From: an uncultured Bacteroides sp.
GTDB taxonomy: Bacteria > Bacteroidota > Bacteroidia > Bacteroidales > Bacteroidaceae
Length of the DNA stretch: 64,000 nt
Assembly (NCBI GenBank): GCA_944322345.1
Contig: CALUOO010000007.1
Location: 57,198-121,197, forward strand
Direction: 5' to 3'
Position 1 is the stretch's first letter, and the number at the start of each line of letters is the position of its first letter. The notes below the pieces were generated by a model. It ran no database searches, had not been told where the DNA came from, and saw only the letters and a list, made by a program, of their open reading frames with translations. This document shows positions 17,369-21,661 of the stretch, in pieces. The translations under genes and the position numbers were made by a program.

Positions 17369-17395
17369 TCTATCTGAGATTTAAGATACAGACAG

Positions 17396-17428
17396 AAGGA
17401 GACTCCCTGCGCAAGGAGTCTCCTTTTT
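17396..17428 (+). terminator. Intrinsic terminator of rpmE2
   Basis: AAGGAGACTCC / GGAGTCTCCTT followed by TTT. Confidence 0.85.
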
Positions 17429-17594: not shown

Positions 17595-17685
17595 TTCGTA
17601 TCACGTAGGTATTCCGTTCGTATCACTTAAGTCAACCGTTCGTATCACTAATGTTATCCTTTCGTATCACTAAGGTGATACGAAA
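17595..17685. repeat. Four TTCGTATCAC direct repeats at 22-bp period, ending in an inverted copy
   Basis: Copies at 17595, 17617, 17639 and 17661; perfect hairpin TTTCGTATCAC-TAAG-GTGATACGAAA at 17660-17685. Confidence 0.9.
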
Positions 17686-17859: not shown

Positions 17860-17867
17860 TAACTTTG
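17860..17867 (+). promoter_or_regulatory. -7 promoter element for the accessory operon leader
   Basis: TAACTTTG matches TAnnTTTG, about 430 nt upstream of the first gene. Confidence 0.6.
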
Positions 17868-17871
17868 CACC

Positions 17872-18204
17872 ATATTCCTGCGCCGACAATCCGTAGAGAT
17901 GGAAGGAGTGGGAATGTAGATTTATACATAAAAGGCGTTTACTTGACGCTTTGATTTTGACAATGTAAGAATCTCGCAAATTCAAACGGTTAGTCAAAGA
18001 CAAAGCAACGGTGAATGCTCTCGGGGTGTTTTTATATGCATCTGTGTACTCTTATACCTATTTATATAATAAGGTATAAAAGGAAAGGGTGTATACTATA
18101 CAGACATCGGCGTGGGGCTTTCGACGTTGCTCGTTTCGACTAACCGGGCAATGCGAGAGCCTTTACATTGTGGAACGAGCGACAGGATCGGCTCCACGTT
18201 TTTT
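17872..18204 (+). ncRNA. Putative structured leader RNA / attenuator
   Basis: Nested complementary blocks 17960-68/18163-71, 17972-78/18152-58, 17987-95/18138-46, 18004-10/18125-31, 18041-48/18097-104 and 18052-59/18072-79; a terminator-like GTGGA...TCCAC plus T-run at 18170-18204. Confidence 0.55.
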
Positions 18205-18294
18205 GTGTATAGGGGAAAGAATGTTTTATAAACCTCTTTGTTTTGGTAGCCGACAAAGAAGCATGGAAAATCGTGATTACCAACAACTGATAAA

Positions 18295-19782
18295 ATGGAC
18301 TCTGTAATCAATAAATACATTGCTGTTTATCTTGACAGCTATGTCAGGTCGTTTCGTAGTTCCTGTCGTAGTAGATATACGGTAAATATTGGTGGTCTTG
18401 CCAATTTTATTGCTATAGATGACCTAGACGTTACTTTTCTTATCAATAAGCTACATTTATACGATTTTGATGTAGTTATTTCCAAAGGGCAGGATATTAT
18501 TGATGAGATTCAGGTAGAATATACTTGTGAAAATGATGGGAAGTGTGAACTTTTTGAATATAAAATAGAGAGCCTGATTTCAATTATAAGTTTGTCAAGT
18601 AAAACAGGTATTTCCATTGTTGGAATACTCGTTATGCAAATTATCTCAAACATTATTTGTAAATCCAAGACTATATATAAAGCAATTGTACTTGATCTTG
18701 ACGACACTGTATGGAAAGGTACACTTGCAGAAGATGGTATTGAGGCAATCAAACAAAATTTAAGTTCAATTGATGCTATACCCTTCGTTATGTTTATGCG
18801 TTTCGTTCGGTTGGCAGCAAAAGAGTTGGGATTATATATAGCAATATGCTCACGCAACAACCTTGATGATGTGCAGGCTGCTATTGATAAATTTAATGAG
18901 AATGAATTTCCATTAAAAGGGCAGATAGATTGTATTGTTGCCAATTATAATGATAAAAGCAAGAACATAAAAGCCATAGCTCAGCAATTGTCGATATTAA
19001 CAAATGCTTGTGTTTTTATTGATGATAACCCATTAGTTCGTGACGAGGTTAGAAGCAATTTGCCTGAAGTATTTGTGCCAGACTGGGAGAATCACGATGG
19101 TCTGCTAACATTGTTGGAGGCTTGCTGTATTTTTGATAGATTTGAACTTTCGTTGAAATCAAGAAACCGCAAACGATTATATGCGGTTTTACAGCAGGAG
19201 CGTGAAAAAAGTTGTCTTCCACAACTATTCGTAAAAGTTAATGATGATATAAACCATGTTCAGGCTAGAAAGTTATATGCAAAATCAAACCAATTTAAGC
19301 TTATTTCTGAACAAATTAACTTTTCAAATACAAAATCTATATCCTTTGAGCTATTGCGTTCTAATGGCGAAAATTTAGGGATTTGTTCAACTATTACATA
19401 TTCAATTGATGGTTCAATATGCAGTATTCTAAATTGGGCTATCAGCTGTCGGTATTTTGAAATTGGTTTGGAAGAATTTATCATTTTATACTTGAAAAAT
19501 CACTTACCAAAAGTGTCTTTTCAATTTGCTTGTCAATTCAATAAAGACAATAGAAAAATACAGAGTTTTATAGATAAATATTATGGATGCGTATTTTCAG
19601 ATAGTTGTGATAGCGTTCCTACCGACTGTGATTTATTTATAGAACACTTTAAATATGAGCGTTGTTTTTATAATCATCTGTATGTACTTCTAAGAAACAG
19701 AAATAAATTCAATGTATATTATATTAATAACGAATCAGTTGATATATTAAAAAGTAATACAAAATTAGAGCTTTATGAATAA
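18295..19782 (+). CDS. FkbH-like HAD-IIIC phosphatase
   Basis: HAD motifs I DLDDTVWKG, II CSRN, III DKS and IV FIDDNP; FkbH-like C-terminal KSNQF and WAISCRYF. Confidence 0.85.
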   Translation: MDSVINKYIAVYLDSYVRSFRSSCRSRYTVNIGGLANFIAIDDLDVTFLINKLHLYDFDVVISKGQDIIDEIQVEYTCENDGKCELFEYKIESLISIISLSSKTGISIVGILVMQIISNIICKSKTIYKAIVLDLDDTVWKGTLAEDGIEAIKQNLSSIDAIPFVMFMRFVRLAAKELGLYIAICSRNNLDDVQAAIDKFNENEFPLKGQIDCIVANYNDKSKNIKAIAQQLSILTNACVFIDDNPLVRDEVRSNLPEVFVPDWENHDGLLTLLEACCIFDRFELSLKSRNRKRLYAVLQQEREKSCLPQLFVKVNDDINHVQARKLYAKSNQFKLISEQINFSNTKSISFELLRSNGENLGICSTITYSIDGSICSILNWAISCRYFEIGLEEFIILYLKNHLPKVSFQFACQFNKDNRKIQSFIDKYYGCVFSDSCDSVPTDCDLFIEHFKYERCFYNHLYVLLRNRNKFNVYYINNESVDILKSNTKLELYE

Positions 19783-20563
19783 AAAACACATATATACCAT
19801 TGGATACACCTTGTTTCAAAAAGGAAGTTCAATAGATATTGAGAATATGTTTAATATATTGAAAAGATATAATGTGAATTTCTTGGTTGATGTTCGCTCC
19901 GTACCATTTTCAAAACAATATCCACAATGCAATGCTGACAATATGAAAATAGTAGGAAAGAGTTTAGGCATACAGTACATGAATATGCCAGAAATTGGAG
20001 CAAAAGCAAATAACCAGCAAGATGTTTTTTCCAAGGCATCAGACATATTCTTTGAGAATGAGTTTGTTTCCATTTTCCCCATAGCAAAAAGTTATCGCCC
20101 AGAAAAAACAGAATTACATGCTGATGATGAAATAATCGATTTCCGCAAATTTAGGCATGATGAGTATTTTGTAAGAGGATTAAAACGCATTGAAGATGCT
20201 TATAATAAAGATTTTACATTATGCTTAATGTGTAGCGAGAAAAAGCCGATGGATTGTCACAGATATTTCTTGATAAGTAAAGCCCTTGAACAGAGATTCG
20301 GAGATTGGCTTGAAGTAAAACATATTATCAAACAATCAGATGATGAGATAGGATATATCTTAAATACTGAATTGGATAAACAACTTGAGAAATTTGTTTG
20401 TGAAGAAAAAAATGTATTGAGTATGATGTTCAAAAATGAAATCCTTAAAAATTATTTTGGAGAAACAGAACAAGAGAAACTTAATGACTTCTGCGATAGA
20501 TACTGGAATCTACTGCATGGATGGAAAAGGTTTAACCACAATAATAACGAAAATTATGATTAA
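19775..20563 (+). CDS. DUF488 family protein (copy 1)
   Basis: IYTIGYT, LVDVRSVPFS and LMCSEKKPMDCHR motifs; 8-nt overlap with the upstream gene. Confidence 0.85.
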   Translation: MNKKHIYTIGYTLFQKGSSIDIENMFNILKRYNVNFLVDVRSVPFSKQYPQCNADNMKIVGKSLGIQYMNMPEIGAKANNQQDVFSKASDIFFENEFVSIFPIAKSYRPEKTELHADDEIIDFRKFRHDEYFVRGLKRIEDAYNKDFTLCLMCSEKKPMDCHRYFLISKALEQRFGDWLEVKHIIKQSDDEIGYILNTELDKQLEKFVCEEKNVLSMMFKNEILKNYFGETEQEKLNDFCDRYWNLLHGWKRFNHNNNENYD

Positions 20564-21020
20564 ATTATTTAACATTGGCTTCACACAAAAGACCGCAAAA
20601 GAATTTTTCGGAATCATTAAAACAAATCGTATTAATTGCCTTGTGGATATACGACTAAATCCTAACGGGCAATTATCACGTTTTGCATTTGAAAAAGATT
20701 TACCATTTTTCCTTTCGGAATTGTCAAACGGTTGCAAATACAAACATCGTATTGACTTGGCACCGACTAAGGAATTACTAAAAGAGGTTAGGGATAATGC
20801 TTCACCTATGAGTAAGAACTATAAACTGTTTGAGGTTGCTTACAGAAAACAACTCGAAACTAAATCTCGTATTTCTAATTTTGCAGATGAATTTGGGATG
20901 TATGAAAACGTTGTGTTACTGTGCTCTGAGCCAACAAACGAAAAGTGCCATAGAAGAGTTCTTAGTGAACTACTGCTTGAAAAATTTGGAGATCGCATTA
21001 AATTTGGAGGAAATTTATAA
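20556..21020 (+). CDS. DUF488 family protein (copy 2, different subtype)
   Basis: Start MIKLFNIGFTQKTAKEFF at 20556; LVDIRLNP, LAPTKELL and LLCSEPTNEKCHRR motifs. Confidence 0.85.
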   Translation: MIKLFNIGFTQKTAKEFFGIIKTNRINCLVDIRLNPNGQLSRFAFEKDLPFFLSELSNGCKYKHRIDLAPTKELLKEVRDNASPMSKNYKLFEVAYRKQLETKSRISNFADEFGMYENVVLLCSEPTNEKCHRRVLSELLLEKFGDRIKFGGNL

Positions 21021-21661
21021 TGAGAAAACGTGTATTTCTTCTTGCTGTTAGTTGCAAAAACGGAGGGTTATGTCCGGGCGGAATAGACCTAGATAATCCT
21101 AAAGAGTGGATTCGTATAGTTCGAGACGATGGAAATTCAGGCGCTGTTCAAGGTTATGAAATAGATTTTGCCAAGCCGCTTGATATTATAGAGTTTGACG
21201 GCCGCCCAATGCCTCAAGGTAAGCAAAAAGAAAATTGGGTAATTGATAATCACTCCTGTAAAAAAATCAGTACGGAATCTATAAAAAGAGTTGTACAAGC
21301 TTTTAAAGAGTATGGCTATCATGGTTTTTGGAATAACGGCTACTCTTTTCTAAGAGAAAATGAATTAGAAAACGTGACACAACCATCAGAGTCTATTCTG
21401 CTTGTCTCCGATGTTAAGCTTTATAAAAACGACTACGGAAAGGCTAAGATTGATTTTACATGGCATAGATTACCTTATCCAATAAAAGGAATATCATTAA
21501 CTGACCAAGATTTCTACGATAAACTAGATGATAATGAGATCTGTTATAAGCACGCTATCATTGTCATATCTATACCTAAGAATGCAGATTGGACACACCC
21601 TGAAACAGGAGAAAAGAGAGCATATAAGTTTGTCAGTAAAGTATTTGGTTCTCACAATTGA
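21020..21661 (+). CDS. Dual OB-fold-like protein
   Basis: N-terminus LLAVSCKNGGLCPGGID...WIRIV resembles the LANSxKxGGxCxAG...WIRP signature of dual-OB proteins encoded beside DUF488 pairs; TAATG overlap with the upstream gene. Confidence 0.7.
   Translation: MRKRVFLLAVSCKNGGLCPGGIDLDNPKEWIRIVRDDGNSGAVQGYEIDFAKPLDIIEFDGRPMPQGKQKENWVIDNHSCKKISTESIKRVVQAFKEYGYHGFWNNGYSFLRENELENVTQPSESILLVSDVKLYKNDYGKAKIDFTWHRLPYPIKGISLTDQDFYDKLDDNEICYKHAIIVISIPKNADWTHPETGEKRAYKFVSKVFGSHN

Follow-up and report, generated by a model that had tools for sequence, protein, structure and literature searches.

A structured leader RNA family of the Bacteroidales and its possible role as a conditional terminator of varied operons

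The 64,000-nucleotide (nt) window analysed here, from contig CALUOO010000007.1 of an uncultured Bacteroides sp., contains a long structured leader between the rpmE gene and the operon listed below. An earlier model-made interpretation, drawn from the letters of this DNA alone and called here the sequence-only reading, had described the leader as a nested rod overlapping a terminator. We find that it belongs to a real, order-wide family of structured leader RNAs of about 340-420 nt, which is apparently without earlier description. We also consider a role as a conditional terminator for the operon behind it. Coordinates are window positions on the + strand unless stated otherwise.

All copies of the family share one order of parts, namely a TAnnTTTG box, the hairpin P1, the 5' arm of the closing helix P2, the hairpin P3, the rod, the hairpin P5 with its U-tract, the 3' arm of P2, the hairpin HP-D and a start codon. 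In the window copy these parts lie as follows.

17860-17867, + strand: -7 promoter box TAACTTTG; in most of 80 copies a TAnnTTTG box precedes the CGCTTTG anchor by 80-95 nt
17872-17917, + strand: P1, a two-tier 5' hairpin with outer stem AUAUUCCUGC/GUGGGAAUGU, GCCGA in the internal loop and a variable inner hairpin
17877-17886, + strand: segment a, CCTGCGCCGA, 5' strand of P1 with its internal loop, complementary to rod positions 18107-18116
17922-17932, + strand: P2 5' arm TTATACATAAA, the A-tract side of the closing helix, pairing with 18198-18213 in the minimum-energy fold
17933-17951, + strand: P3, a small hairpin AGGCG/CGCTT
17960-18171, + strand: rod with helices H1-H7, a variable apex hairpin and conserved internal loops such as GGGCAA (18146-18151)
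17960-17968 and 18163-18171, + strand: rod block ACAATGTAA/TTACATTGT
17972-17978 and 18152-18158, + strand: rod block TCTCGCA/TGCGAGA
17987-17995 and 18138-18146, + strand: rod block CGGTTAGTC/GACTAACCG
18004-18010 and 18125-18131, + strand: rod block AGCAACG/CGTTGCT
18041-18048 and 18097-18104, + strand: rod block TCTGTGTA/TATACAGA
18052-18059 and 18072-18079, + strand: rod block TTATACCT/AGGTATAA
18106-18116, + strand: segment b', ATCGGCGTGGG, on the 3' strand of the rod, pairing with rod positions 18017-18028 or with segment a
18170-18197, + strand: P5, terminator-like hairpin GTGGAAC...GCTCCAC
18170-18174 and 18193-18197, + strand: terminator-like arms GTGGA/TCCAC, then T6
18198-18213, + strand: U-tract GTTTTTTGT (18198-18206), then GTATAGG, together the P2 3' arm
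18235-18259, + strand: HP-D, stem TCTTTGT/ACAAAGA, loop TTTGGTAGCCG of the type GGGAGYC
18295-21661, + strand: operon for an HAD-like 495-amino-acid protein, two DUF488 proteins and a DuOB protein (Pfam and PADLOC scans)

The TAnnTTTG pattern is the Bacteroidota -7 box consensus taken from a Segatella copri transcriptome preprint. The box keeps its position across copies, in agreement with the suggestion of the sequence-only reading that the structured leader has a promoter of its own, and a transcript start at about 17872 is predicted from it. All six nested block pairs of the rod proposed by that reading were found at the positions it had given or no more than 1 nt away. The folding energy of the + strand of 17860-18215 as RNA is -126 kcal/mol; 100 dinucleotide-preserving shuffles average -88.2 +/- 5.3 kcal/mol (z-score -7.1), and none of them reached the native energy. 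The - strand of the leader folds at only -94.4 kcal/mol, a hint that many G·U pairs are formed on the + strand.

Homologues were collected as 80 copies with flanks and 108 copies from a pattern scan, which were oriented, aligned to a profile hidden Markov model (HMM) and reduced to a non-redundant set of 178 sequences with at most 97% identity. Covariation was judged by pair counting on this profile-HMM alignment, not with a full-length covariance model. Across 54 defined pairs in the 178 sequences, 96.6% of the cells are canonical; the share was 86.7% in column shuffles (maximum 87.2% in 300 shuffles) and 37-43% when the partner was slid by 1-3 columns. Compensatory, two-sided changes in at least two sequences occur at 29 pairs, compared with a shuffle mean of 18 and a maximum of 22, and they bear out the nested rod of the sequence-only reading. 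Alignment columns 170-364 carry GC 58, UA 40, CG 36 and AU 32, and columns 168-366 carry AU 57, CG 31, GC 28 and UA 19. An assumption-free mutual-information scan placed its top pairs in rod helices H1, H2, H3 and H7 and at the P5 pair 371-392, which covaries as GC 132, AU 28 and GU 12. G·U cells number 785 against 110 A·C cells; therefore the functional form is the + strand RNA. The structure supported by covariation is longer than the span first flagged and extends from the promoter box at 17860 to the downstream hairpin at 18235-18259.

Individual parts of the leader are conserved in different ways. P1 is present in the minimum-energy fold of the window copy, and the equivalent region is a hairpin in 64 copies with a mean z-score of -3.1. 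The pairs of P3 are 99% canonical but nearly invariant, so that covariation cannot prove this hairpin; its AGGCG strand extends P2 instead in the minimum-energy fold of the window copy, and its 3' strand, ACGCUUU, looks like a terminator tail. The rod spans 162-233 nt (median 203) across copies, and its apex of 24-100 nt is a single unbranched hairpin in 173 of 175 copies. HP-D keeps a fixed distance of 15-25 nt to the start codon. Loop nucleotides are strongly conserved across the family, and some long stretches are both unpaired and invariant, among them UUGGUUUUG and GGGCAA. The most conserved stretch, GCAATGCGA, contains an ATG (18149-18151) that opens an open reading frame (ORF) of at least 20 codons in 99 of the 178 copies. 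No reading frame is conserved across the leader copies, the frames in which P5 is crossed being distributed 69/55/47 modulo 3 and the ORF lengths ranging from 4 to more than 40 codons. A leader peptide or small protein starting at this ATG is thus ruled out, and the ORF is a by-product of RNA conservation.

Of 201 genomes searched from the same family, 105 (in 28 of 35 genera) contain DNA matches to the leader core (window 17923-18211), at 68-81% identity and with up to five matches per genome. The window's own genome contains a single copy. Only one of the nine sampled genomes of the same genus, Bacteroides, carries the leader, the window's own not counted, and this scarcity may be a reason why the family went unnoticed. 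An exact-pattern scan of 185,579 species genomes returned at least 119 loci. Among the matches listed, the hosts are Bacteroides, Phocaeicola, Prevotella/Segatella, Alloprevotella, Parabacteroides, Muribaculaceae, Tidjanibacter, Odoribacter, Butyricimonas and Paludibacteraceae, spanning also Rikenellaceae and Odoribacteraceae; cultured carriers include Segatella copri HDE04 and Bacteroides caecigallinarum ET12, each with two copies, and Prevotella ihumii Marseille-P3385 has one copy. A class-level sample of 250 other genomes gave one match, which came from the same order. We therefore take the range of the family to be the order Bacteroidales, narrower than the Bacteroidetes-wide family that the sequence-only reading had considered. 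Its suggestion that the family is undescribed holds so far, in that no description was found in the literature searched, including a 2026 review of small RNAs in gut commensals and the Segatella copri transcriptome preprint, and no Rfam 15 model matched the element in the window copy or in 15 other copies (cmscan, E<=1). The 272-nt SrcF RNA is reported only within the S. copri complex (S. copri literature) and is therefore probably unrelated. The exact family motif also appears on contigs of metagenome-assembled genomes labelled Oribacterium, Acutalibacteraceae, Agathobacter rectalis and Lachnospiraceae (loci L125, L139, L147 and L155). These Firmicutes-labelled contigs are probably mis-binned Bacteroidales DNA rather than cases of transfer to Firmicutes.

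The leader also has a regular position relative to the next gene. Of the 77 loci with enough downstream sequence, 54 have an ORF on the + strand whose start lies 35-135 nt past the U-tract, most often at about 65 nt (59-70 nt). In 53 of these 54 loci the stretch from the U-tract to the start codon is free of TAnnTTTG boxes, so the downstream genes appear to depend on the leader promoter. The proteins they encode are mostly unrelated to one another, with 163 singletons among 251 ORFs. Pfam families in this cargo comprise BspA-type leucine-rich repeats (LRR), ResIII/SNF2/DEAD helicases, DUF6175, acyltransferases, glycosyltransferases, radical SAM proteins, CarboxypepD_reg, DUF3575 and others; lipoproteins also occur, and a methyltransferase follows some copies.

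Between the rod and this ORF lies the terminator-like module. P5 alone has a median folding free energy of -8.6 kcal/mol (178 copies), and at least six U residues occur within 10 nt after it in 165 of the 178 copies (93%). Conservation of the U-tract exceeds that of the A-tract with which it can pair. Positions 18170-18171 are at once the last two bases of H1 and the first two of P5, which confirms the overlap of rod and terminator noted in the sequence-only reading, and two more nucleotides of P5 can pair with the U residues that immediately precede H1. When the region from the predicted transcript start to the U-tract was folded, the rod formed and P5 was absent from the minimum-energy structure in 48 of 63 copies.

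A third element of this competition is the complementarity between segment a and segment b'. In the window copy, CCTGCGCCGA (17877-17886) and TCGGCGTGGG (18107-18116) form ten of ten pairs, as the sequence-only reading had pointed out, and the homologues contain compensatory changes. Native a:b' duplexes have a mean energy of -17.1 kcal/mol, compared with -15.2 kcal/mol for cross-pairings between copies and -11.9 kcal/mol for shuffled 5' regions, and none of 5000 permutations matched the native energy. The nucleotides G18109 and G18110 are bulged and partnerless inside the rod, yet they covary with the P1 loop: the position facing G18109 gives G-C 42, A-U 5 and U-A 2, and that facing G18110 gives G-C 52, A-U 4 and U-A 1. 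For G18115, which is paired within the rod, the counts are G-C 24, A-U 18 and G-U 12. Among the 26 copies in which 10 or more of the 11 a:b' pairs are present, unconstrained folding in silico retained H1 and lacked P5 in 23. With a:b' enforced, H1 was lost in all 26, because of the topology, and P5 formed in 20.

The 3' strand of the rod also contains a repeated motif. In most copies UCGGCG occurs there twice, at 18107-18112 (alignment columns 305-310) and at 18121-18126 (columns 319-324), the second site reading UCGACG in the window copy. Mutual information links the middle base of the second site to the C/U position in the 5' GCCGA loop (CG 73, UA 29, UG 17). It could be an extra docking site, or the signal could be mere subfamily structure.

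Two additional long-range pairings involve sequence beyond the terminator-like module. For the arms of P2, native pairing is better than cross-pairing in 80 copies, with no permutation out of 5000 as good, and the clear covarying cases extend at least 10 nt beyond the U-tract. The loop of HP-D is complementary to the 3' strand and loop of P5 (ATCGGCTCCA, 18187-18196). Here too the native pairing surpasses all 5000 permutations, and double changes such as GACUCC/GGAGUC, GUCUCC/GGAGAC and GGCUUCA/UGAAGCC are found among many others. The complementarity reaches at least six contiguous bases in 143 of 177 copies, mostly 40-54 nt after P5.

We propose that the leader is a cis-acting conditional terminator/antiterminator RNA which gates the downstream operon, and we give this reading a probability of about 0.55. 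The data show the family, its architecture, its covariation and its strand specificity; the transcript ends, the termination and the direction of the switch are what we infer as follows. Transcription would start at the leader's own TAnnTTTG promoter, near 17872, and the nascent RNA would fold into P1, P3 and the long rod. As the rod base H1 uses the first nucleotides of P5, and P5 stands directly before the U-tract, the full rod would be the antiterminator; with the rod formed, RNA polymerase would read through and the operon would be expressed. In the read-through RNA, P2 and the contact between P5 and HP-D might form and either lock the 'on' fold or put it to further use. If segment a (17877-17886) pairs with b' (18106-18116), the outer rod would be blocked, P5 would fold, and transcription would stop near 18200-18206. 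The switch would thus have three parts, with the rod as antiterminator, P5 and the U-tract as terminator and a:b' as anti-antiterminator, an arrangement that comes near to the one suggested by the sequence-only reading. The balance could be set by a protein or a metabolite, or else other leader transcripts could provide 'a' segments in trans.

The order of promoter, leader, hairpin with U-tract and promoterless co-oriented ORF is the same as in terminator/antiterminator leaders such as riboswitch platforms, T-boxes and attenuators. These likewise contain two helices with common nucleotides, here H1 and P5, and a third segment, here a, that may displace the antiterminator. Unlike them, our leader has no match in Rfam, and no ligand or effector could be inferred for it. 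Compared with riboswitches it is far larger (about 340 nt, with a rod of 200 nt), is present in multiple copies before unrelated operons and has selected structure past the terminator in P2 and HP-D. The sequence-only reading had drawn an analogy to phage P1 c4 and P4 CI, in which a 5' segment of the transcript is likewise complementary to a later site and the pairing is proposed to stop downstream expression. The logic of 5'-segment pairing stands, and the complementarity classes GCCGA/UCGGC, GCUGA/UCAGC and CUCGC/GUGAG recall the immunity specificities of those phages. Membership in that family does not: no C4 model matched, sequence and structure are not homologous, the leader is chromosomal, and its cargo is non-phage. 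A phage or plasmid origin was rejected as well, since the leader has no match in a phage collection of 50,697 records or a plasmid collection of 72,556 records.

Several observations weigh against a conditional terminator. Covariation fixes neither P3 nor the register of P5. The two outermost P5 pairs are uncompensated when they vary, whereas the lowest H1 pairs that compete with them are compensated; the loop of P5 is large, and P5 was missed by a simple terminator scan. At least eight of the nine flanking a:b' pairs are present in only 66 of 126 usable copies, or about half. In the 26 copies folded in silico, the a:b' state loses a mean of 15 kcal/mol in stability relative to the rod state and would therefore need kinetics or a helper to matter. 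Finally, covariation of P2 and of the HP-D contact continues past the U-tract; the longer RNA itself is therefore under selection, and this suits a post-transcriptional role equally well.

Such a role is a less likely alternative. The whole RNA would be made as a 5' untranslated region, and the closed fold of P2, rod and P5/HP-D would control its stability, its processing, for example by RNase III at P2 or the rod, or the start of translation, with the U-tract serving mainly as a strand of P2. Besides the extent of P2 covariation, the covarying contact of the HP-D loop with the 3' strand of P5, the fixed spacing of HP-D from the start codon and the prevalence of the rod without P5 as the minimum-energy state all agree with it. 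However, the near-invariance of the U-run, opposite a variable A-tract partner, points to selection on U itself beside a covarying hairpin, and the a:b' complementarity would have no obvious role.

We judge it unlikely that the leader is instead the gene of a trans-acting small RNA, in which case the terminated RNA of about 335 nt would be the product, acting by base-pairing or protein binding, and the operon would be expressed by leak-through. Its own promoter box, its terminator-like end, its multiple copies and its long invariant unpaired stretches are what one might see in such a gene, but a small RNA would need neither the covarying structure beyond the terminator nor the co-oriented ORF without a promoter box at a tightly fixed distance. 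Ornate noncoding RNAs such as OLE, GOLLD, ROOL and raiA resemble the leader in size, dense covariation and invariant loop nucleotides. They are stand-alone RNAs, whereas the leader has a strict 5' position and orientation and a terminator-like module. Known large noncoding RNAs (6S, OLE, GOLLD, ROOL, raiA and HEARO) were rejected as identities, no model matching at E<=1.

A platform for processive antitermination, of the lambda PR'-tR'/Q, HK022 put, EAR or Bacteroides UpxY type, appears improbable. A factor, or the leader RNA itself, would here modify the polymerase so that P5 and later terminators are ignored. The lambda PR'-tR'/Q and Bacteroides UpxY capsule leaders are likewise short terminated leaders before long accessory operons that need read-through, and the combination of a constant leader, strongly conserved loop nucleotides and variable cargo, with long, horizontally acquired-looking surface, capsule-like and defence operons, would suit this mechanism. 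In contrast to those systems, no antiterminator gene of the NusG-like or Q-like kind is linked to the copies, no sequence is held in common with them or with the put and EAR models in Rfam, and the leader contains an RNA-intrinsic alternative fold.

The sequence-only reading had favoured a switch that keeps a potentially toxic operon off until infection, and we now find such a defence-specific sensor very improbable. The tightly coupled operon in the window does resemble the PADLOC candidate PDC-M45 (A/B/C), and some other copies precede ResIII/SNF2 helicases or a methyltransferase. Most cargo is of other kinds, however, including BspA-type LRR proteins, glycosyltransferases, acyltransferases, radical SAM proteins, DUF6175 and lipoproteins, so that the same leader stands before unrelated surface-protein, glycosyltransferase, radical-SAM and helicase operons; the absence from the phage and plasmid collections argues in the same direction. 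A PDC-M45-like operon lies behind only two of about 77 copies studied, the window copy and copy L033, whose first gene is 65% identical to the first gene of the window operon. As the cargo is varied and unrelated, the leader is neither part of the PDC-M45-like system nor specific to defence. A role as a PDC-M45 component was rejected for lack of a constant link to DuOB/DUF488 genes.

A retron msr-msd region, which likewise has a small hairpin and a very long one enclosed by inverted repeats ahead of an ORF, was rejected as well: the 25 commonest Pfam families downstream (93 matched, 112 downstream proteins) include no reverse transcriptase, none is adjacent in the window, where the cargo is HAD/DUF488/DuOB, the downstream genes vary, and no msr or other Rfam model matched. 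A DNA-level palindromic repeat without RNA function, similar to miniature inverted-repeat transposable elements or repetitive extragenic palindromes, would explain multiple copies, an imperfect palindrome and variable flanks, but is ruled out by the G·U over A·C asymmetry, a one-strand selection that palindromic DNA would not show, by the constant spacing of the co-oriented ORF in 54 of 77 loci, by the fixed distance of the promoter box and by long-range covarying pairings that are not palindromic.

Gut Bacteroidales toggle surface structures and defence systems against host immunity, phages and competitors. The familiar devices for this control are DNA inversions, NusG-like UpxY factors and sigma/anti-sigma pairs. 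To these, a conserved leader of 340-420 nt would add an RNA-based layer. It combines three or more long-range pairings that covary, and about half of the species sampled from the family carry it (GTDB Bacteroidaceae, judging from the named hosts). For RNA biology it would mean a large new structured RNA with an effector to find, and for microbiome research a handle on the gating of accessory operons. Tentatively, the copies might even form an order-wide RNA regulon, in which a common signal, either a metabolite or protein acting on the invariant loops or 'a' segments acting in trans by complementarity class, gates dozens of unrelated operons. One RNA device would then control surface, capsule-like and defence operons alike; we hold this extension to be speculative.

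Around the window copy, some smaller features were recorded. An upstream ORF of 14 codons (18263-18307) has its ATG just past HP-D and runs in a different frame across the first operon gene's start codon. The flanking ORFs of 20 loci form no cluster, and no conserved neighbouring regulator gene was found among them. Upstream of the leader promoter and downstream of the rpmE terminator (17394-17427), four direct copies of TTCGTATCAC with a spacing of exactly 22 nt occupy 17595-17685, and the last copy is a perfect palindrome, TTTCGTATCAC-N4-GTGATACGAAA. These repeats look like iterons, a regulator binding site or the arm sites of a recombinase; repeats of this kind are absent upstream of 19 other leader copies.

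The synteny of fba and rpmE is kept across the genus, and similarity ends at the end of rpmE (window 17370 onwards). In nine relatives, the 1.5 kb after rpmE has no match anywhere in the 64-kb window. The loss of similarity past rpmE places the leader and its operon in a variable region, for which no empty site, and so no island boundary, could be defined from the relatives' DNA after rpmE. At locus L014, a tRNA gene (2269-2354) lies about 380 nt upstream of the leader copy on the same strand, a neighbourhood that is consistent with leader-plus-cargo units residing in variable, island-like regions.

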